In this document: in pieces, positions 1,141 to 64,000 of the stretch
How the letters are laid out: each line of letters opens with the position of its first letter
Position numbering within the stretch: position 1 is the first letter of the stretch
Source: Enterobacter phage phiEap-3
Length of the DNA stretch: 64,000 nt
Reading direction: 5' to 3' (one strand)
Sequence record: KT321315.1
The notes under the pieces: generated by a model
The model's database searches: none
What the model was told of the DNA's origin: nothing
The model's input: the letters and a program-made list of their open reading frames with translations, nothing else
Program-made: the position numbers and the translations under genes

Positions 1141-1176
1141 AAAAAGCCCCTTCCTTTCGGTTGGGGCTTTCTTTTA
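1141..1176. terminator. bidirectional rho-independent terminator (AAGCCCC-ttcctttcggtt-GGGGCTT), T-runs on both sides
   Basis: GC stem-loop between convergent gp25 (+) and the 1174..1629 ORF (-). A near-identical hairpin recurs at 39286..39316. Confidence 0.7.
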
Positions 1177-30991: not shown

Positions 30992-31906
30992 TTATTTTGG
31001 TAATTTTTCGATGGTTGCTTTCAACTCATTGATTTTATTAAAGAGTTCATCGCTATATTTCATCAACTCACTACGGCGCTTTTCGGCCCACTTGATCAGG
31101 AATTCAGGAGAATCTACACCATACGTGTAACCTTCGGCACTCAGTTGAATACGAGCACGGGAACCATAATCAACAGAACTTTGCTCAATGAGAAACTTAA
31201 CCGCATCAAGCAGGGCTAAATCTTCATGACTTACCATGATTCCTTCTGCCTTTGGAAGATCCACAACTTCATCTTGGATGAGTTCACGGCGGGTTGTTTC
31301 TTCCAGTGTTTCATGATTCTGGATCATCGTTTCAACCGGATCCTTTACCACGACTGGTTTGTTTTCACCTACTTCTTCCAAAAACATCAACATCCATCCA
31401 GGAATTTTAGTCCGGAAAGAACTTTGCACTTCACTGGTGCATGAATTTCCCAGAATGTGGATCGCGTTGCCATGCATATCAACTTTATTGATATAGATAA
31501 CGTTCTGCTGTTCCTGTCGGTTGCTACCATAAGAAAGGAAGCGGCGTAACGATGTGTTATGACCATACTTCCCTAAATCGATTTCAGCCAGGCAATCAAT
31601 GATCCCACGGTTAGAAACCTTGTAGCGCTTACCCTGTTTGAAAAATAACGGTTCTTCCATGTGAGTAGGGTTAAACTCTTCGTAAAGCACATAGAATTCT
31701 TTAGGAATTTTGCGTTGAACCAGATTCAGTTTACAATTATTAGAAGGAACGATAACAGAGTGAATGTTTCCTTCTGTATCACACATAGCTTGCATTACTT
31801 GCGGATAGTAAAGATGGTCTTTCTTGCAAGTATAGCTATGGATACGACTCTGACGTTTTTTGAAGTACCATTTACCAGTTTCAAAAGGCGCTGTTGTAAA
31901 ATTCAT
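30992..31906 (-). CDS. hypothetical protein (304 aa), partner of the DUF262-like gene
   Basis: ORF, ATGA-coupled to 31903..32430. Confidence 0.5.
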   Translation of the reverse strand: MNFTTAPFETGKWYFKKRQSRIHSYTCKKDHLYYPQVMQAMCDTEGNIHSVIVPSNNCKLNLVQRKIPKEFYVLYEEFNPTHMEEPLFFKQGKRYKVSNRGIIDCLAEIDLGKYGHNTSLRRFLSYGSNRQEQQNVIYINKVDMHGNAIHILGNSCTSEVQSSFRTKIPGWMLMFLEEVGENKPVVVKDPVETMIQNHETLEETTRRELIQDEVVDLPKAEGIMVSHEDLALLDAVKFLIEQSSVDYGSRARIQLSAEGYTYGVDSPEFLIKWAEKRRSELMKYSDELFNKINELKATIEKLPK

Positions 31907-35335: not shown

Positions 35336-35402
35336 GATAGCCTCCTTTGTTTCGACAAGGCCAATATAACAAAGCCCCTGCACGAATGCAAGGGCTTTTT
35401 TC
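35336..35402 (-). repeat. PeSL-like cassette (hairpin aagcccctgcacgaatgcaagggctt + TTGTTATATTGG + leader)
   Basis: Hairpin identical to the one at 30958..30989. Confidence 0.6.
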
Positions 35403-36018
35403 AGTTTTTCAACATCCAAAGTTGCGGAGGACAATCTTTAGAAGCGATTAGACGATCCAGGCGGGACATAACCCGACGATAACCGTCGTATTCAAAATTG
35501 ATTTTTGGCGGAACGTAGTTAACCTGGATTGTTTTTCTGTTAGCTAAAGAAACATACTCAGGGATCACCGTTCGCAACCGTATAGCGATGACTGGCTTCT
35601 CTTCGCCTTCGTTAAAGAACATTTGAACAGTGATAGGACAGGCAAAGATTTTACCGTTTACACGACGATAAACAATAACTTCCTGTGTCCCTTCTGTTTT
35701 GGCCTTCACAGCGTAAGTTAGAACATAACACGAATAATGATTTGCTAGACTCATCATGATATCGCGATAAGTTTCAATATCTTTTTTAATCGATACCGAA
35801 CGGTCTTTAAAGCGATCTGCAATGTGGTCAGCAGTAGCCGCTACCTTGACTGTATACCAGTCACCTAACGCGCTAGTAAACGCCTCGCTAACTTCTTTTC
35901 GTACACTGTTAACAAGATACATTAAACGTGTTCTGTTCATATAATCCTCACTGATTTTTGAAGTATTCGATCTGACGCAAACGCTTTTCAGCGGCGGCTT
36001 TCGAATCGTATTCACCAA
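35401..36018 (-). CDS. hypothetical protein (205 aa; possibly starts at internal MNRTRLMY)
   Basis: ORF. The track start overlaps 57B by 70 nt. Confidence 0.45.
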   Translation of the reverse strand: MVNTIRKPPLKSVCVRSNTSKISEDYMNRTRLMYLVNSVRKEVSEAFTSALGDWYTVKVAATADHIADRFKDRSVSIKKDIETYRDIMMSLANHYSCYVLTYAVKAKTEGTQEVIVYRRVNGKIFACPITVQMFFNEGEEKPVIAIRLRTVIPEYVSLANRKTIQVNYVPPKINFEYDGYRRVMSRLDRLIASKDCPPQLWMLKN

Positions 36019-36571
36019 GTTCTTTTGTGCGATCGTGGTTCAATACTACCCACTTGTCGCCGCGCTGTTCAATGTGTTCTGTAATGTCTTTTAATGACTT
36101 ATCCAGATCCAATGATTCAGCCTCTTCACGGATAATAGTCAAATCCACGGGCAGTGTCAACAACCTTTTCACTCCGCTGATATCATCCAGCATAGAATCA
36201 TATGCAAGGGTTACATGCGGCTTGTAATCCGGGTAATCGTATGTTGCGCCAGCATCAATTGAATCTTTGAAACGGCTATGCAGGTATTCAGATTCCAGGA
36301 TCCCTACGATAGTACTACCGTATTTTGTGTCCCACTTTTCAACATCAACCAGTTTAGCAGGTTCTATAATGTCCTGCTGTGGGAACAAATCAACCGTTTT
36401 CCGGCTGTATACGATCGTTGTATGCATCTTCTCGGCTGAAACAGCATTCTTTGTGATACCTAATGTCTTTTGAACATTTTTCAAAGCCTCACACGAAGCC
36501 TGATCGAATTTAGCACACATGTAGATACCAGGATCTACAACAGGTTTTGTGATTTCAAGAAATGATTTCAT
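35948..36571 (-). CDS. 57B: 2H phosphoesterase (LigT-like), Acb1 / gene 57B-like anti-CBASS candidate
   Basis: Two H-x-T/S-x motifs (HTTIVYS ... HVTLAYD). Lies immediately upstream of 57A, as T4 57B (acb1) does. About 207 aa, versus about 150 aa in T4. Confidence 0.6.
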   Translation of the reverse strand: MKSFLEITKPVVDPGIYMCAKFDQASCEALKNVQKTLGITKNAVSAEKMHTTIVYSRKTVDLFPQQDIIEPAKLVDVEKWDTKYGSTIVGILESEYLHSRFKDSIDAGATYDYPDYKPHVTLAYDSMLDDISGVKRLLTLPVDLTIIREEAESLDLDKSLKDITEHIEQRGDKWVVLNHDRTKELGEYDSKAAAEKRLRQIEYFKNQ

Positions 36572-36582
36572 AAAACACCCCA

Positions 36583-36606
36583 ATAAAAAAGGGGCCGAAG
36601 CCCCTT
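36583..36606 (-). terminator. rho-independent terminator (aggggccgaagcccct + TTTTTT on the minus strand) between 57A and 57B
   Basis: Same 16-nt hairpin as at 32767..32782. Its reverse complement occurs at 57736..57751. Confidence 0.6.
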
Positions 36607-36897: not shown

Positions 36898-37593
36898 TTA
36901 AAATTTAAAAGTATCGAGCACTTTGCTCTTTAGTTGTTTCAAAGTACCTTCGTTAGTGATGATACTATCTCCCGGTTGAGGTGTCAAACCTTTTTCCGTA
37001 GAATGTTCATCAACAATTCCGGTATCCTTTACAATAAACACAAACTTAGCACCCAAACGTTTCAGGTATTTATATTCGTGTTCCTGACGACAGTCAGTTA
37101 CCAGAAGGTGATTGTATTCGTCACCAGCATATTTATTGACGAATCTTTCCAGTGTGTAACGAATCCAAACCGTGTTATCATACTTGCATACGATATCAGT
37201 TCCAAACACTTGCATCAAGCGTCTGATACTCCAGGGAGTATCGTTATTCATAATCAGGTTACGGATATCATCAGGATGATAAACAATATTGTATCCGCGT
37301 TCTTTGAGGATTTCAAGCCCGATTCTGAAAATATTTAGAACATCTTCATTAGACATCACAAGAGGTTTCTCTCGATCGCCTTCATAAAAAATAGCATCCG
37401 GATCAGAATATTTTCCTTCAACCAGACTACGAATGTATGGTTTATCGTAACCATATCGCTGCATTGCTACTCTTAGCGTTCTTTTGATACCAAATGCCAG
37501 TGCTTCACACTGAACATCATTGTACGCCTCTTGAATAAATTTAGCAACCGTATCTTTACCAGTTCGCTTCTTTCCACTAATCACATAAATCAT
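36898..37593 (-). CDS. 1: deoxynucleoside monophosphate kinase gp1
   Basis: P-loop ISGKKRTGKDT. 231 aa. Synteny 57A-1-3. Confidence 0.75.
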   Translation of the reverse strand: MIYVISGKKRTGKDTVAKFIQEAYNDVQCEALAFGIKRTLRVAMQRYGYDKPYIRSLVEGKYSDPDAIFYEGDREKPLVMSNEDVLNIFRIGLEILKERGYNIVYHPDDIRNLIMNNDTPWSIRRLMQVFGTDIVCKYDNTVWIRYTLERFVNKYAGDEYNHLLVTDCRQEHEYKYLKRLGAKFVFIVKDTGIVDEHSTEKGLTPQPGDSIITNEGTLKQLKSKVLDTFKF

Positions 37594-38123
37594 TAGCTCA
37601 TTCTCTTTTGTGAAGATACTACTTTTCCGTCAATTTCAACTTCCATATGAAGGAAGCCAAAAGTTGCCATACATGTAACCGCTTCATCACTATCGTTAGT
37701 ATAACCCAATTCAACCTCACCCAAGTTTGTTGGGAAGGCACCATAAAATCTAAATGTGGCGATCGTTTTCATCTGGGAGTTATCCAGGATATGCACAGCG
37801 AATGATTGCTTAGGATCATCCCACGCAACAGAGTTAAACTCGTTGTAATCGTTTGTGCTCAACATCCATATGTAAATCCCAAGATACGATCTCATTTCCT
37901 CATCGACTACAAAGCGGATCATCAAAGGATCAAACTCAAAAGCCGAACCAGGTACTTTACCTCGAACCATCATATTTGCAGGAATATCAACTGCTGGGAG
38001 GTTCATTGATGGTAGTGTAACCCCTTGAACTTGTAAAGTCAAACCTTTCATGTAACTGTTATCAGGAATATCAACCCGAAAATTTGTAGGCGAGATTTGG
38101 TTTAAAATCATTTCTGTAGACAT
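37593..38123 (-). CDS. 3: tail tube terminator / sheath stabiliser gp3
   Basis: 176 aa, the same length as T4 gp3. ATGA coupling with gene 1. Confidence 0.7.
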   Translation of the reverse strand: MSTEMILNQISPTNFRVDIPDNSYMKGLTLQVQGVTLPSMNLPAVDIPANMMVRGKVPGSAFEFDPLMIRFVVDEEMRSYLGIYIWMLSTNDYNEFNSVAWDDPKQSFAVHILDNSQMKTIATFRFYGAFPTNLGEVELGYTNDSDEAVTCMATFGFLHMEVEIDGKVVSSQKRMS

Positions 38124-38201
38124 AGGATCTCCTTTCCTCTATTTAGCGGGGAACGGGATCGAAGCGCCTGACGGGGTAATATAAAAATTTGAAGAAAGTA
38201 C

Positions 38202-38230
38202 TTGACCTTTTAAAATCTTTGATCTATAAT
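38202..38230 (+). promoter_or_regulatory. near-consensus sigma70 promoter P1 (TTGACC-17-TATAAT, GATC abutting the -10)
   Basis: TTGACC at 38202..38207 and TATAAT at 38225..38230, 17-nt spacer. In the AT-rich gp3/insert intergenic region. Confidence 0.6.
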
Positions 38231-38318
38231 AATTATTAATTAAAATTTTATCAAAAAGATCTAACAAGATCAAGTAAAATTTAATAAATAATTTATCAAA
38301 AATTTTTTAGATCTGATC

Positions 38319-38348
38319 TTGAATTCATAAATTTTATGATCTATAATA
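38319..38348 (+). promoter_or_regulatory. sigma70 promoter P2 (TTGAAT-18-TATAAT), repeat of the tgatcTATAAT -10 element
   Basis: TTGAAT at 38319..38324 and TATAAT at 38343..38348. Confidence 0.5.
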
Positions 38349-38492
38349 TATTAATATTTTATTTTATCATAAATTTTTATGAAGATCAATACCTAGATCT
38401 AATAAATTTTATGCTTTTTCTGAAAACTTTTCCTTTACCCCGTCACTAAATACTGGTACTATATTCCCATATTGGAAATCAGGAAAAACAAA

Positions 38493-39281
38493 ATGACTCA
38501 CTTGAAAAAATTCAAAGAATTTCTGACCGAAGGTAAAACCCTCGCTCGTACTGTAGCACGTGGTCAACGTGCCAAAACTTCCGATAAACATTCAATCGGT
38601 TTTCTTCACTTCAAACATGGTTCTGATTTCGAAGTTTTAGCACCGGATTCTCACGATCTGGCATACTTCGGTAAAAACATTGTACGTTTGAAAGGTATGA
38701 CTACTGGTAAAGTTCAAGCGGCTTATGTCGATTGGGCTAAAGGTACTGTTTCTTTCTACAGTGGCAATCCGGATGATGATCTGGATTTCGACAAACCAGA
38801 AAAATTCAAAGCTGCTACTCTGTATGAAGAGGCGGAAGAAAATCTGGATCTGTATAACCAGTTAGCAGAAGATTTCGAAATCGAGATCCCTATGGATGAA
38901 GCTCTGGTGAAAGGTAAAGTTTACAAACTCCCAAGCAACGATATGCGTCTTCTGTACACTGGGCGTTCTAAAACTAAAGCAAGCGGTGAATATGCAGTGT
39001 TTACCGTAGTTGATGCTTCCGGCAAACCTCGCCTAGTATCTGGTAAAAAATTCACCCAAGAATATAAAGGCGATATGGTTTCTAAACTGGTTCTGGCTGA
39101 ATCCGAAGATCTGAATGAAGCGGCTAAAGGCATTCGCGAAAAAGTTATTGCTGTGATGGTGAAACGCGGGTTTAACGAAAAAGATGCAGAAAAGATGGTT
39201 GACAAAAACCTGAAAGATGCTATGAAAGTTAGACCTGGTGCGACCCCTGGCAAACTTGCAGAAATAGTTAGCACCCTGTAA
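38493..39281 (+). CDS. hypothetical Cys-free, Lys/Glu/Asp-rich protein (262 aa) inserted between gp3 and gp2 in divergent orientation
   Basis: ATG at 38493 with RBS AGGA. The ORF-track start at 38472 is TTG. Strong codon bias (cgt/ggt/ctg/aaa/gaa). Own promoters and terminator. Confidence 0.6.
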   Translation: MTHLKKFKEFLTEGKTLARTVARGQRAKTSDKHSIGFLHFKHGSDFEVLAPDSHDLAYFGKNIVRLKGMTTGKVQAAYVDWAKGTVSFYSGNPDDDLDFDKPEKFKAATLYEEAEENLDLYNQLAEDFEIEIPMDEALVKGKVYKLPSNDMRLLYTGRSKTKASGEYAVFTVVDASGKPRLVSGKKFTQEYKGDMVSKLVLAESEDLNEAAKGIREKVIAVMVKRGFNEKDAEKMVDKNLKDAMKVRPGATPGKLAEIVSTL

Positions 39282-39285
39282 AAAT

Positions 39286-39316
39286 AAAGCCCCTTCCTTC
39301 CGGTTGGGGCTTTTTG
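39286..39316 (+). terminator. rho-independent terminator (aagccccttccttccggttggggcttttt)
   Basis: Near-identical to the terminator after gp25 (1141..1176). Confidence 0.7.
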
Positions 39317-39317
39317 A

Positions 39318-40172
39318 TTAGTATTTGCTCCAGACTTTTTTCGCGCCGTAAGGTTTCCCTTTGGACATAAATTGCTGAGTCGGTAGCCAAACAGCTTTCG
39401 CCCAATCCTTCGGGGCAATCTCTGCTAATGGTGATTTTAGGTGTGATGGTAGATATGCTTTGATCATTTCTGTTGCGCCTCGCATACCTTTCACGTTACC
39501 CCAGTTAATTTTAAGCACGGTCTTGTTAGAGAGGCGTTTAGTGGATCCGTACCCTCGCTTCAATAACTCTTCTAAAAACTCCTGTCGTGCTCTGGGTGGC
39601 GCATAGTGCAAGTTCAAACCATAGAACACCAAGTTACCCGCTTTTGATCTTCCGGATCCTAAGAAAATGATCAGTGGAAATCTATCCCAGTACGGTAGGG
39701 TGTCTTTATATTTTGCATCATATGCAAACGTGTACAAGCGACCCGTTGCTGGTTTTGCCACACGGTGTGTTTTGATACTGGTTTTGATGAAATTACCAAA
39801 CCATTCTGTCGAATCTTTCTGTCGCTTTGCTGCTGATACACCAACAGTGATCTTTTTCAGACTATTACGGAAATCGTTGATGATCTCGATCCCGTGTTTT
39901 TTACGGTAGTCATTACGTTTTTTACGGGCTTCTGTCTCTGCTGAACGTCGTTCAATCTCATCATCGATCTGTTTTTTGTAACGATGCATTGACTTTGTGA
40001 ACGTTGCGTAGTTTAATCCCTCAGAATCGGCAAAACGTTTAGCAGAAACACCTTTCGTTTTCGCCTTGCGGAATTTGATCCCCAGTTCAACCCAATCACT
40101 CAATTTGCGTTTGGGCGGTGCTTTGGGTTTATCCTCTTCCGCGATGATCTCAAACTCAAAAATAAAACTCAT
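39318..40172 (-). CDS. 2: DNA end protector protein gp2
   Basis: 284 aa (T4 gp2 274 aa). Position between gp3 and gp4. Basic, Lys/Arg-rich C-terminal half. Confidence 0.65.
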   Translation of the reverse strand: MSFIFEFEIIAEEDKPKAPPKRKLSDWVELGIKFRKAKTKGVSAKRFADSEGLNYATFTKSMHRYKKQIDDEIERRSAETEARKKRNDYRKKHGIEIINDFRNSLKKITVGVSAAKRQKDSTEWFGNFIKTSIKTHRVAKPATGRLYTFAYDAKYKDTLPYWDRFPLIIFLGSGRSKAGNLVFYGLNLHYAPPRARQEFLEELLKRGYGSTKRLSNKTVLKINWGNVKGMRGATEMIKAYLPSHLKSPLAEIAPKDWAKAVWLPTQQFMSKGKPYGAKKVWSKY

Positions 40173-45128: not shown

Positions 45129-47054
45129 ATGGCTACTGCTAAGACTAAGACTGTCAAAAAACAGATTAACCAAATCCCCGATATTTTTATCGGGGGTACT
45201 TTCGAAGAAATTAAAACAGATCTGATTGATTGGCTGGGTGGACAAGAAGAGTTTAAGGATTACGATTTTTCCGGCTCGCGAATGAACGTACTGATCGACC
45301 TTCTGTCGTATGCTACTCTTTATATTCAGCAGATGGGTAACACGGCTCTATTTGAATCGTTTATTCGCACGGCTGCATTGCGTAGTTCTGTTGTACAGTC
45401 TGCTCAAGATCTGGGATATATGCCAGATTCTCGCACGGCTGCAAGCACAGCAGTAATGATTACGGCTGCTAACCCACTGACCCCAACATCGATCCGTATC
45501 CCGCGCGGTACAAAATTCATCGGTACTGTAAAGAATACAGACAGTTATTCTTTTGTTGTATCAGATGACGTTGTTATCGTTCGTGATAGTAATAACAACT
45601 ATACATCAATGCTGAACCTGGTGCAAGGCCGTTTAGTTCGTACTGAACTAATTTATGACGGTTCGAGTATCCTGATCCGAGATCCAAACATTGACCGTAG
45701 TCAGGTACGTTTAACTGTAAACGGCGCACAATGGGAAGACTGGACAAACGAAAGCATTGTAAACGCAACAGGCGCAAGCACGATTTACTACATGCGTGAA
45801 ACTGTTGATGGACATACCGAAGTTTATTTCGGTGAAGGTGAAGCAAGTCAACAAGTGGCGGGTGGCGCATTAACCGCTGAATATATCGGGGGCTTGAAAC
45901 CTGCTAATGGATCGACTATCGTTATTGAATACCTGTCAACCGATGGGGAAGCGGCTAACGGTGCAAAAGATTTTATCTATGTCGATACATTAACCAATAT
46001 TAGCATCACGGCGATTAAAGAGAACCCAACCAACACCCCTGATTATGTCGGTGCTGATGGTGGTGGTGATCCAGAAGATATCGAGCGTATTCGAGAACTG
46101 GCCCCTGTTATGCGTGAAACACAACGCCGTTGTGTAACTGCATCGGATTATGAATCATTCCTGTCTCACAGATTTGGTTCTATCATCCAGGCGGTACAGT
46201 GCTTTACTGATAACGAAAAACCTGGTTATGCTTTCATTTCTGTTAAACCAAAGTCAGGTTTGCGCCTAACATCGGTACAGAAAGAAGATATGCAAACGTA
46301 TCTTTCGAAATATAACCTCGCGACGATCACCCCGTCGATTATGGATCCTAACTATCTGTATATTGTGCAATCTGTCAAAGTAACGTATGATATCAGTAAG
46401 TTGACGGAATCAGAGGAATGGTTACGCGGTCAGGTTATTTCATCGATCGACTCTTACTATACTGACAACGTTGAAATTTTCAACAAATCTTTCAGTGTAT
46501 CTAAGATGTTGACTTATGTCGATCAGTCTGATACTTCTATTATCGGTTCGGAAGCAGATATTAAATTGCTCCGTGAAATTGACAACTATTACAGCGCCCC
46601 TATGTCTGGGATTCATTTCTTGAACCAGGTGGAATCTAAATCAATCATTTCCAGTACGTTCAAGTTCACCAACGAACAAGACGAAAGTTATGATGTTCGT
46701 TATGCTTCTACGGAAATGGATCAGGATGGTAACGCAAAAATTGTAATAGGCCCGTTCAAGGATGGGGATATTTCGATTGCTGCTTATACAGGCGATGACT
46801 TTGAAAAATTAACAGATGCAGGAACCCGTAATAAATATTACGAAGTTGGATCGGTTTCTCATTACACCGATTTCATTAGCTTTGACCTGGGCGTTCTGAA
46901 CGTATCCGCCGATAGTTTCAGCGCTGCTTATATCGAGCTAAATGCAAAACCTCTCGAAGAAACCATTTTTACTCGCGATGGTTCGTTGATCGTGTTTGAA
47001 AATGACCTGCGTCCTCAATATACCACATTGACTATGAATCCTATCAGTCAATAA
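45129..47054 (+). CDS. 6: baseplate wedge subunit gp6
   Basis: 641 aa. Matches T4 gp6 (IPDIFIGGTFEEIK, RLNVL.DLL.Y, YYMRETVDGHTEVYFGEGE, CVTASDYESF, RDGSLIVFENDLRPQY). Confidence 0.85.
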   Translation: MATAKTKTVKKQINQIPDIFIGGTFEEIKTDLIDWLGGQEEFKDYDFSGSRMNVLIDLLSYATLYIQQMGNTALFESFIRTAALRSSVVQSAQDLGYMPDSRTAASTAVMITAANPLTPTSIRIPRGTKFIGTVKNTDSYSFVVSDDVVIVRDSNNNYTSMLNLVQGRLVRTELIYDGSSILIRDPNIDRSQVRLTVNGAQWEDWTNESIVNATGASTIYYMRETVDGHTEVYFGEGEASQQVAGGALTAEYIGGLKPANGSTIVIEYLSTDGEAANGAKDFIYVDTLTNISITAIKENPTNTPDYVGADGGGDPEDIERIRELAPVMRETQRRCVTASDYESFLSHRFGSIIQAVQCFTDNEKPGYAFISVKPKSGLRLTSVQKEDMQTYLSKYNLATITPSIMDPNYLYIVQSVKVTYDISKLTESEEWLRGQVISSIDSYYTDNVEIFNKSFSVSKMLTYVDQSDTSIIGSEADIKLLREIDNYYSAPMSGIHFLNQVESKSIISSTFKFTNEQDESYDVRYASTEMDQDGNAKIVIGPFKDGDISIAAYTGDDFEKLTDAGTRNKYYEVGSVSHYTDFISFDLGVLNVSADSFSAAYIELNAKPLEETIFTRDGSLIVFENDLRPQYTTLTMNPISQ

Positions 47055-62708: not shown

Positions 62709-64000
62709 ATGGCTTTAATCTCTCCAGGCATTGAAACTAAAGAAACATCGGTACAATCTACCGTTGTTCGAAATTCAACTGGTCGTGCTGCTATTGTTGG
62801 TAAATTTTCATGGGGGCCAGCTTACCAGATCCGTCAGATTTCTAACGAAGTCGAACTGGTAAATTATTTTGGCTCCCCAGACAATGACACCGCTGATTAT
62901 TTCATGAACGCTGTAAACTTTTTACAGTTCGGTCAGGATCTGCGTGTTGTTCGTGTCGTCGATAAAGAAGCCGCAAAAAACGCAACCGCGATCTATAATC
63001 AGATCAAAACCACGATCACCGCTGCTGGTTCTAACTATGCAGTAGACGATCAGATCAAAGTTAAACACAATAACGTTGTTATTGAAGAAGATGGTGCTGT
63101 TACAAGCGTTGATGATCAGGGTAAAATCCTGTCTGTGTTCATTCCGAGCACTAAGATCATCGAACACGCTAAACAGGTTGGTGTATATCCGGATCTATCT
63201 AGTGGCTGGACTACAGAAATCATTTCCAGTTCTTCTGGTGTTTCTGCTACGATTACAATCGACGGCGTAGAAGTTGATTCGGGTATTACTCTGCTCAACC
63301 TTGACACCGCAAAAGAAACTATTCAGGCAACTGATTTCCAGGAACTTTGCACCAAATATCAGCTACCGTCTGTTATTGCAATTTATCCGGGCGAAATGGG
63401 TAGCACCGTAACGGTTGAAATTCTGTCTAAAGCTGCATACGATTCTTCGGCTGTCATTAAGTCTTATCCTTCTGGTAAGTCTGGTAAAAACAGCGGTCGC
63501 AGTTCGATGAACTTTGGCCCTCAGAATGATAACCAATACGCGTTTATCGTTCGCCGTGGTGGTATTATCCAAGAAACGTTTATCGTGTCAACCGCTAAAG
63601 GTGATAAAGATATCTACGGTTCAACGATCTACATGGATGATTTCTTTGCAAACGGTGGTTCTCAGTATCTGTATGGTACGTCCCTAAACTGGCCTGTCGG
63701 ATTCTCCGGCGTTCTGGAACTGGGCGGCGGTACTTCTGCAAACGCCACTGTAGGCGCTGATGAACTCATGGCTGGTTGGGATATGTTCGCAGATCGTGAA
63801 TCTCTGCATGTTCCTCTGCTGATTGCGGGTGCTTGTGCTGGCGAAACTGCCGAAATTTCGTCTACTGTACAGAAACACGCTGTGTCTATCGGTGAAACCC
63901 GTTCAGATTGCGTTGTATTCGTTTCTCCGCCGCGTTCTGCTCTGGTTAATATCCCACTGGCTCAGGCCGTTGATAACCTCGTAGAATGGCGTACAGGCTA
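62709..64000 (+). CDS. 18: tail sheath protein gp18 (5' portion; continues beyond the window)
   Basis: MALISPGIETKETSVQSTVV... aligns with T4 gp18 (MTLLSPGIELKETTVQSTVV, QKHVVSIGD...). No stop before the window end. Confidence 0.95.
   Translation, partial: MALISPGIETKETSVQSTVVRNSTGRAAIVGKFSWGPAYQIRQISNEVELVNYFGSPDNDTADYFMNAVNFLQFGQDLRVVRVVDKEAAKNATAIYNQIKTTITAAGSNYAVDDQIKVKHNNVVIEEDGAVTSVDDQGKILSVFIPSTKIIEHAKQVGVYPDLSSGWTTEIISSSSGVSATITIDGVEVDSGITLLNLDTAKETIQATDFQELCTKYQLPSVIAIYPGEMGSTVTVEILSKAAYDSSAVIKSYPSGKSGKNSGRSSMNFGPQNDNQYAFIVRRGGIIQETFIVSTAKGDKDIYGSTIYMDDFFANGGSQYLYGTSLNWPVGFSGVLELGGGTSANATVGADELMAGWDMFADRESLHVPLLIAGACAGETAEISSTVQKHAVSIGETRSDCVVFVSPPRSALVNIPLAQAVDNLVEWRTG

Follow-up and report, generated by a model that had tools for sequence, protein, structure and literature searches.

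Between gp3 and gp2 of Enterobacter phage phiEap-3 (sequence record KT321315.1) lies a plus-strand gene of 262 amino acids (aa), which we analysed within a stretch of 64,000 nucleotides (nt) of that record, here called the window. We think it fairly probable that this gene encodes a previously unrecognised internal head protein of the T4 class, which would be targeted to the capsid, processed by the prohead protease and injected. The window belongs to the genus Slopekvirus, the KP27/KP15-like Klebsiella phages. Over the interval that holds the gene its sequence agrees at 99% with that of KP27, KP15, Miro, Matisse, phT4A and more than 100 further members, and window coordinates equal KP27 coordinates minus 62,313. 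The KP27 record labels the gene 'hypothetical protein', and the PHROG to which it belongs has no function assigned (Table 1). Ahead of the gene stands an AT-rich promoter island studded with GATC sites, which is the second subject of this analysis.

The evidence that carries the internal-protein reading begins at the N-terminus. The window protein starts MTHLKKFKEFLTE|G, with the motif L-x-E as LTE13 before the bar, and its relatives start MKSFKELLSE|S, MKTFKELITE|S, MKNFKEFLNE|V and MKQFKQFLSE|V, which gives the family consensus M-K-[STN]-F-K-E-[LF]-[LI]-x-E. F7, K8 and E13 are invariant across the family and the next ~20 residues vary. In T4, ipII and ipIII both start MKTYQEFIAE|A and ipI starts MKTFKEF (read from NC_000866). 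The first ten residues of T4 IPIII are enough to load foreign proteins into the head (PMC9026906, PMC5694885), residues 4 and 7 serving in targeting and residues 8 and 10 in processing by the prohead protease gp21 (PMC9026906). At the positions equivalent to T4 4, 7, 8 and 10 the family has F, F/L, L/I and E. The capsid-targeting determinants at positions 4 and 7 are present in the family, with the motif of the window protein offset by three residues, and the L/I-x-E motif for gp21 can be recognised at the end of the tag, closing on the invariant glutamate.

The tag is specific where it was looked for and widespread among T4-like viruses. A loose regular expression for it, applied to all six frames of the whole Slopekvirus genome, matched only the 262-aa gene, and over 20 kb of T4 it matched only ipII and ipIII. 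A scan of IMG/VR with the back-translated motif MKxFKE[FL][LIM]xE gave at least 120 loci (L022-L141). Among the matches listed, 113 of 126 are starts of open reading frames (ORFs), having an in-frame stop no more than 25 codons upstream; in 87 of the 126 the tag E is followed by S, A, G or T, and 108 distinct sequences come after the tag. T4-type core genes (e.g. gp20, gp21, gp22, gp23, gp18, gp55 and uvsY) accompany 99 of the 120 loci listed, and the listed matches comprise more than 100 different tagged proteins of 27-966 aa in T4-like viral contigs. On the evidence of these matches, MKxFKE[FL][LIM]xE is a T4-superfamily N-terminal tag borne by many unrelated cargoes. A capsid-targeting sequence that heads many unrelated cargoes is also the published picture (PMC3012670, PMC4122927). 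Some of the IMG/VR contigs have two tagged proteins at one locus (L053, L079, L128, L129, L134 and L141).

The DNA just before the gene points in the same direction. When the intergenic regions of six lineages were aligned they were ~50% identical overall, with one conserved block immediately ahead of the gene. This block consists of a -35-like hexamer (TTGATC; TTTACC in the window), 16-17 nt containing an invariant TAAATA, and then TA(t/c)(c/t)AT, the window parts being TTTACC at 38434-38439, CTAAATA at 38446-38452 and TACTAT at 38457-38462. The late-promoter box TAAATA lies ~40 nt before the ATG in all six lineages. In T4 relatives the late-promoter box is TAAATA preceded by T, C or A; its consensus is TATAAATA, in which the first T may vary, and Aeh1 uses the form CTAAATA (PMC1524935). 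Within the window, TAAATA-type late boxes stand also ahead of gp3, gp53 and further late genes. The early promoter consensus of T4 and PST is TTTACW-N17-TAYWAT (PMC4122927), and the promoters of the T4 ip genes read GTTTAC-17-TATATT, TAGTAT or TACTAT (NC_000866). The ancestral cassette would appear to have overlapping late and early-type promoters, an arrangement that fits a protein needed when proheads assemble. Late transcription, as expected of an internal head protein, is indicated here at the motif level.

The first-pass annotation of this DNA had proposed an immediate-early protein for host takeover, anti-restriction or DNA mimicry. A purely immediate-early gene does not agree with the presence of the late box in every lineage, nor with an N-terminus of the T4 capsid-targeting type; taken together, these two features suggest that the protein is probably made late, packed into the head and injected rather than only synthesised early. 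The protein may plausibly act at the outset of infection, and the idea of an 'immediate' actor survives in altered form, with delivery by injection. In relatives without the island (L003, L004, L009-L011), shared CGCTTCGCT-type repeats or hairpins lie upstream of the gene, and a TTGATC hexamer stands 6-7 nt upstream of the late box. The long leader gave no Rfam match at E values up to 1.

In T4, gp3 and gp2 are directly adjacent and the 262-aa gene is absent; as the first-pass annotation had noted, a plus-strand gene is here wedged between these two minus-strand neighbours. Its further suggestion of a recent, moron-like insertion fails. The order gp3(-), gene(+), gp2(-), followed by the same terminator hairpin, is kept in two members of Pseudotevenvirus, RB43 and Cronobacter phage leB, as well as in Yersinia phage JC221, in Pantoea phage Phynn and in a metagenomic contig of 94 kb (L011), and because the exact position is shared by several genera, a recent moron is ruled out. 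The family is tiny, with 14 proteins found in a search of 5.8 billion sequences and 13 representatives in a profile search of 1.84 billion. Database names for its members are all 'hypothetical protein' or 'tail completion protein', the latter probably mis-transferred from the neighbouring gp3. In Aeromonas phage CC2 an unrelated protein bears a relative of the N-domain at its C-terminus.

The protein itself is modular and probably highly expressed. The fraction of optimal codons of the E. coli type is 0.70, second among 86 window ORFs (mean 0.52, standard deviation 0.07), which bears out the expression-optimised codons proposed earlier; the value is that of head-core proteins, comparison genes giving 0.71 for gp22, 0.69 for gp19 and 0.68 for gp67, and only gp23 (0.82) lies clearly above. 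In an AlphaFold model (mean pLDDT, the per-residue confidence score, 73) a flexible N-terminal tag is followed by a beta-rich domain and then an acidic helix (residues ~20-127), a second small beta domain (~143-196), a linker and a three-helix bundle (214-261); residues 204-211 are of low confidence and linker-like. Behind the N-domain at least three different C-terminal modules are found, and RB43 has none. At the junction the motif L-x-L-[AV]-E is nearly invariant in the family alignment, and its L201-A-E203 may be a second prohead-protease site that frees the C-terminal module. A free-standing paralogue of the three-helix module is encoded in the early region as KP27_019 (53 aa, L006:9551-9712; 50% identity, E 1e-11; also PHROG 9411), and the module occurs also in other proteins (P0023-P0025). 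The 262-aa protein matched no Pfam or NCBIfam family, and BLASTP of its mature part against T4 IPI, IPII and IPIII gave E 0.04 or worse, with no significant similarity.

Of the description of the protein as Cys-free, highly charged and acidic, the first two parts stand: there are no Cys residues and 84 of the 262 residues (32%) are charged. The protein as a whole is near neutral, with an isoelectric point (pI) of 8.4, 43 K+R against 41 D+E and a net charge of ~+2; the N-domain alone is mildly acidic (pI 5.5). Since the protein is not acidic, the suggested DNA mimic of the Ocr or ArdA kind is ruled out, and no fold match was found for it.

We propose the following course of events. The gene would be transcribed late from the gp55-type promoter CTAAATA, and host RNA polymerase would also transcribe it through the overlapping T4-type early promoter. 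Through residues 1-13, serving as capsid-targeting sequence, the protein would dock on the scaffolding core of the prohead, after which gp21 would cut the tag off behind LTE13 and perhaps also cut at L201-A-E203. The mature protein of ~27.6 kDa would stay in the head and be ejected with the DNA, and would be present in the cell before any phage gene is expressed. Its job would probably be counter-defence or host takeover, by analogy with T4 IPI and IPIII, a reading that fits the swappable C-terminal modules and the free-standing module copy in the early region. Upstream of the gene, the ~260-bp AT-rich block, with at least two rightward and three leftward sigma70-like promoters, was gained by Slopekviruses alone. 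The analysis shows the features of the sequence, how they are conserved and their statistics; from these we infer packaging, cleavage, injection, expression timing and methylation alike.

The prohead machinery for such a course is encoded by KP27 (gp20, gp67, gp68, gp21, gp22, gp23, gp24 and Inh), and no internal protein or Alt is annotated in the phage. A small family in which a conserved N-domain is combined with swapped C-terminal modules appears to show the diversity typical of internal proteins. T4 IPI and IPIII are injected anti-defence proteins (PMC3012670, PMC9391042); IPI blocks a type IV restriction enzyme and IPIII is required to infect strain ECOR17 (PMC3012670, PMC9026906, PMC9391042).

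Several points weigh against an internal head protein. In Slopekviruses the tag is shifted by three residues (MTHL...), a displacement whose tolerance is uncertain; a start at the in-frame TTG of codon 4 would give back MKKFKEFLTE, but the spacing of this TTG from the ribosome-binding site (RBS) is poor. An AT-rich MK... start could be favoured simply by efficient translation. At 262 aa the protein exceeds the size of the T4 internal proteins, and the gene sits among tail and head-completion genes, where another structural role is possible. The literature searched held no virion proteome, N-terminal sequencing or transcript map for a Slopekvirus or Pseudotevenvirus; the one T4-like Klebsiella virion proteome in it is from a different genus, Jiaodavirus.

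The island upstream of the gene had first drawn attention through its GATC cluster, which is real, highly non-random and part of a three-copy element specific to the genus. Eight GATC sites (38221, 38258, 38268, 38310, 38315, 38338, 38384 and 38396) fall within 179 bp (38221-38399) at 14-15% G+C per 200 bp, the densest 200-bp segment of the 64 kb; the window as a whole has 449 sites, or 7.0 per kb, itself above the 264 ± 16 of shuffled sequence. The sites had been described as mostly AGATCT or abutting a -10 element: three of the eight are AGATCT, so that 'mostly' overstates the first part, and GATC does abut a -10 twice, both times as GATCTATAAT. The two near-consensus promoters reported there, P1 and P2, are both present, the second with a spacer of 17 rather than 18 nt. 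GATCTGATC lies just upstream of the -35 of P2. GATC occupies -16 to -13 in both P1 and P2, and many of the island sites fall either within -35-like TTGATC hexamers or immediately ahead of a -10. The best leftward promoter aims at gp3, gp1, 57A and the long block of minus-strand genes. The MotA-box-like element was found at 38410 as TATGCTTTT, with one mismatch; by eye no -10 stands at the T4 spacing, and a MotA middle promoter at this place was rejected.

Against RB43, leB, JC221, Phynn and the metagenomic contig L011, the island is an insertion of ~260 bp between the conserved gp3-proximal part and the proximal promoter. BLASTN of the island DNA returned Slopekvirus records only, typically with three places per genome. 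A 29-nt imperfect inverted repeat brackets the island, its arms 79% complementary and including the perfect G+C-rich 8-mer TGACGGGG/CCCCGTCA. Such a repeat may point to a mobile origin or to entry of the block into a hairpin; this stays speculation because the other two islands have no comparable flanking repeats.

Variation among Slopekviruses is slight in this region. Eight good genomes are nearly identical, with one of ~14 substitutions falling in a GATC, too few to test selection. In the record of Klebsiella phage CPRSB (OM971649.1; L014, L016) 6 of 10 intergenic GATC sites are lost, most of the island sites being changed by G>A or C>T, and 7 of 8 private island changes hit GATC. We place no weight on this record, as these losses may be base-calling artefacts: the genes of that record are heavily fragmented (e.g. 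14 'baseplate wedge subunit' coding sequences) and the excess of GATC mismatches elsewhere is only 1.7-fold; if they are sequencing errors at methylated sites, they may be indirect evidence of Dam methylation. Phage Squirrel_ER27 (L015:99-498) carries a 28-bp tandem duplication within the island (GATCTAACAAGATCAAGTAAAATTTAAT) that adds two GATC sites.

A composite genome of 174,413 bp was scanned for segments of at least 150 bp at no more than 22% G+C per 100 bp, and exactly three were found (Table 1). Over their 921 bp GATC occurs 22 times, against 0-5 times for each of the other 23 orderings of A, C, G and T. They share a ~60-bp module, tACTTGAyy...TTTGATCTATAAT-aATTATtAATTAAtAAaTTTTAtCA, which consists of a promoter, P1 being its core at this locus, and ~35 nt of conserved pure A+T, and of the 93 best sigma70-like sites of the genome 13 fall in the islands, which make up ~0.5% of its length. 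Among the 42 annotated KP27 promoters that we extracted, GATC occurs only in those of the islands. Many of the others are promoter-early stem-loop (PeSL) promoters, in which a G+C-rich stem-loop covers the -35 and spacer; at 35351-35403 (-), for example, the terminator hairpin AAAAAGCCC-TTGCAT...-GGGCTTT runs into TATATT, in a form near-identical at many loci (L006, L007, L008). P1 and P2 were rejected as PeSL promoters, no stem-loop being fused to either.

Over the whole genome GATC is the commonest of the 24 orderings (1135 in 174 kb) and CTAG is strongly avoided (90). A second GATC-dense stretch, with 7 per 200 bp at 62860-63200, lies in the tail-sheath gene gp18 at normal G+C and includes one GATCTATAAT; it is probably a matter of coding-sequence chance or codon context. 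KP27_267 codes for a protein closely homologous to T4 Dam (E 1e-84 to PDB 1yfj), for which reason the island GATC sites are probably methylated by this T4-type enzyme. A C5-methylase is encoded as well (PMC5219037).

The most economical reading of the islands is the simplest, that they are two-way hubs of strong early promoters heading major early transcription units. Against a role for the individual sites, the GATC enrichment could have been inherited through duplication of the promoter module rather than selected site by site. A different possibility, unlikely in our judgement, is that the three islands are replication origins or origin-promoter hybrids, in which a promoter firing into AT-rich DNA would yield an R-loop primer (cf. 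T4 oriF and oriG), timed by Dam methylation or by SeqA on hemimethylated GATC (cf. oriC and P1 oriR); this would be compatible with an internal head protein. The genome has only three such AT-rich segments, with a ~20-fold GATC excess, each with the shared module of promoter and pure A+T, and it encodes a T4-type Dam; the module in the uvsY island points at the gp24 end, where no minus-strand gene is annotated. There are also rough parallels with T4, the islands lying upstream of uvsY (oriF), beside rnh (oriG, 2.2 kb off in T4) and between gp3 and gp2 (oriE, ~3.4 kb off in T4). On the other side, the intergenic region of the 262-aa gene has no DnaA boxes, iterons or oriC-type 13-mers (GATCTNTTNTTTT) within one mismatch, and its only strings resembling sites for integration host factor are one-mismatch ones, as expected in AT-rich DNA. 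T4 origins use MotA-dependent middle promoters, of which this island has no good example, only the one-mismatch box. SeqA pairs GATC sites up to ~31 bp apart, and the spacing of ~40-55 bp in the uvsY island exceeds that limit. All three sites head early transcription units, so that dense promoters alone explain their position, and the closest relatives with the same gene order have no island at this gene.

We also considered, as a speculation to which we attach little probability, that the islands are read through their methylation. Fully methylated on the incoming genome, the islands would serve as the strongest immediate-early promoters and/or as R-loop origins. The first replication would leave them hemimethylated, and host SeqA or a change in sigma70 binding would then silence them or alter their timing. 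The island at this gene would also give an additional early pulse of an effector that is otherwise made late and injected from the capsid, its C-terminal modules being released by the prohead protease.

For the gene itself, a second alternative is that its product acts in the cytoplasm, made from the sigma70 promoters in the first minutes to act on host defence or metabolism and never packaged. The two near-consensus sigma70 promoters and the T4-type early promoter upstream would suit such a protein, as would its own terminator, its codon bias and the fact that its C-terminal module also exists as a small early-region gene. However, P1 and P2 are confined to Slopekvirus while the late box is invariant in all lineages, a protein confined to the cytoplasm has no use for a tag with a protease site, and lack of acidity removes the DNA mimic as a function for it. 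Nor are early promoters an argument against packaging, since the T4 ip genes carry early-type promoters too. We hold this account to be rather unlikely.

That the gene product is a common late protein of virion structure or assembly, acting together with gp3 and gp2 in the neck, the tail terminus or head completion, seems to us improbable; the likeness of its tag to that of T4 would then be coincidental or driven by translation. Such a protein would be at home among gp3, gp2 and gp4 in a conserved position, behind a late-promoter box and with high codon bias, and a few records do say 'tail completion protein', but those names look transferred from gp3 with no evidence behind them, and T4, which lacks the gene, still forms its neck and tail. 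It is also rare for a conserved structural protein to exchange an entire C-terminal module or, as in RB43, to lose it. The tag, moreover, fits the functionally mapped positions, is confined to T4-like phages and heads more than 100 unrelated proteins among the matches listed.

The genomic setting supports the view that the gene is a cassette complete in itself, lying on the strand opposite to its neighbours and equipped with promoters and a terminator of its own; around it, the KP27 annotation has two promoters and a two-way terminator. The hairpin of that terminator (39286-39313, then a T run) folds at -16.9 kcal/mol, and a simple terminator scan missed it on account of an internal bulge. The strong terminator nearly identical to the hairpin after gp25, as described in the first-pass annotation, was confirmed, and the hairpin is a repeated module. 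The left neighbour, gp3, matches the Pfam Phage_T4_gp19 fold family (E 1.6e-5), and Pfam Phage_T4_gp2 is on record for the gp2 orthologues of three related loci (L009-L011). The CTAAATA heptamer ahead of gp3 recurs before gp53 (40666) and before a late gene at 45129. Beyond 57A, the gene at 35948-36583 (-) occupies the T4 57B position; in the related loci L009-L011, the gene at the 57B-like position has a match to Pfam Acb1 (anti-CBASS nuclease).

Table 1. Features of the 262-aa gene, its surroundings and the three islands. Positions are those of the window unless KP27 is named; a dot marks features not assigned to one strand.
Feature	Position	Strand	Details
gp3 (tail completion / tail tube terminator; head-proximal tip of tail tube), left neighbour	37593-38123	-	176-aa ORF; gp3 label in KP27
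gp3 late-promoter-like box CTAAATA, then RBS GAGGAAAGGAG	38140-38146	-	
Left arm of 29-nt imperfect inverted repeat bracketing the island (TGACGGGG...)	38169-38197	.	
AT-rich GATC-studded promoter island	38177-38437	.	8 GATC; ~15% G+C; Slopekvirus only
Promoter P1, TTGACC-17-TATAAT	38202-38230	+	11/12 matches; KP27 promoter annotation; GATC directly abuts -10
Leftward sigma70-like promoter, TTGATA-17-TATTAT	38226-38254	-	10/12 matches
Two weaker leftward sites, TTGATC-17-TAAAAT	38273-38245, 38389-38361	-	
Promoter P2, TTGAAT-17-TATAAT	38319-38347	+	10/12 matches; GATC abuts -10
Right arm of 29-nt imperfect inverted repeat (…CCCCGTCA)	38417-38445	.	
Ancestral proximal promoter, TTTACC-17-TACTAT with late box in spacer	38434-38462	+	Six-lineage alignment; T4/PST early consensus
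Candidate gene, 262-aa ORF = KP27_206	38493-39281	+	PHROG 7322
Capsid-targeting-sequence-like propeptide, codons 1-13, MTHLKKFKEFLTE	38493-38531	+	Family alignment against T4 ipI/ipII/ipIII; ends in L-x-E
L201-A-E203, L-x-E before variable C-terminal modules	39093-39101	+	L199, L201 and E203 nearly invariant in family alignment
C-terminal three-helix module, aa 213-262	39129-39278	+	PHROG 9411
Bidirectional intrinsic terminator, common to the 262-aa gene and convergent gp2	39286-39316	.	KP27 annotation on both strands
gp2 (DNA end protector), right neighbour	39318-40172	-	KP27 annotation
Sister terminator hairpin after gp25	1141-1176	.	One loop base different
Island in rnh/gp55 divergent spacer	KP27 31172-31483 (L006:31172-31483)		9 GATC
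Island in the spacer of the 262-aa gene	KP27 100480-100765		8 GATC
Island in gp24-to-uvsY spacer	KP27 134954-135276 (L008:8955-9277)		5 GATC

Of the phages of Klebsiella, Enterobacter and Cronobacter, Slopekviruses and Pseudotevenviruses are some of those most frequently isolated for therapeutic use, and no internal or injected protein is annotated in them. If the 262-aa protein is indeed packaged and injected, it would be a candidate first-response effector that could shape host range in the manner of T4 IPI and IPIII, and its tag could be used for loading foreign proteins into these phages. The occurrence of the tag on more than 100 unrelated proteins, among the matches listed, offers a simple sequence rule and a catalogue for mining candidate injected effectors. 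The GATC islands, whose statistics are strong, would offer a convenient place to begin work on control by Dam, or on origins, in T4-like phages beyond T4 itself.

Among known systems, the gene resembles the PeSL cassettes of T4-type phages (PMC2839356, PMC4122927) in being a non-core gene between a sigma70-like promoter and a recurrent stem-loop terminator, the one also found at 1141-1176. It differs in that P1 and P2 have no embedded stem-loop and are AT-rich with GATC instead, and in that the position of the gene is stable, not hyperplastic.

GATC clusters under Dam and SeqA control are known from E. coli oriC, P1 oriR and the IS10 and dnaA promoters. The island is like these in having many GATC sites within a few hundred AT-rich bp, overlapping -35 and -10 elements, with a cognate Dam methylase in the same genome. 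It differs in having no DnaA boxes, iterons or 13-mer repeats in the intergenic region of the 262-aa gene, and in being present in three copies in the genome of a virulent phage; the likeness is one read from sequence. With T4 oriF (uvsY), oriG (gene 34) and oriE (gene 5) the islands have in common a promoter beside easily unwound DNA, and one of them lies directly upstream of uvsY, the others being a few kb from the oriG and oriE equivalents. The T4 origins, in contrast, are not GATC-rich islands and use middle-mode promoters, and the positions match only loosely.

The closest comparison is with the T4 internal head proteins. They differ from the 262-aa protein in the mature part, where there is no similarity of sequence or fold, in size (precursors of 95-193 aa) and in charge, those of T4 being basic and this one near neutral. 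The 262-aa gene is transcribed against its neighbours, three extra residues precede the tag in Slopekviruses, and packaging and cleavage are here predictions from its motifs. What they share is a tag of ~10 residues with an aromatic residue at 4, a hydrophobic one at 7, L/I at 8 and E at 10, followed by a small residue; a T4 early-type promoter of the form TTTACW-17-TAYWAT, as in ipI, ipII and ipIII; high predicted expression; and membership of a small, lineage-restricted, modular family. As with ipI, the gene lies a few genes away from 57A and gene 1. The missing homology to IPI, IPII and IPIII is not disqualifying, because internal proteins are defined by their tag and not by homology.

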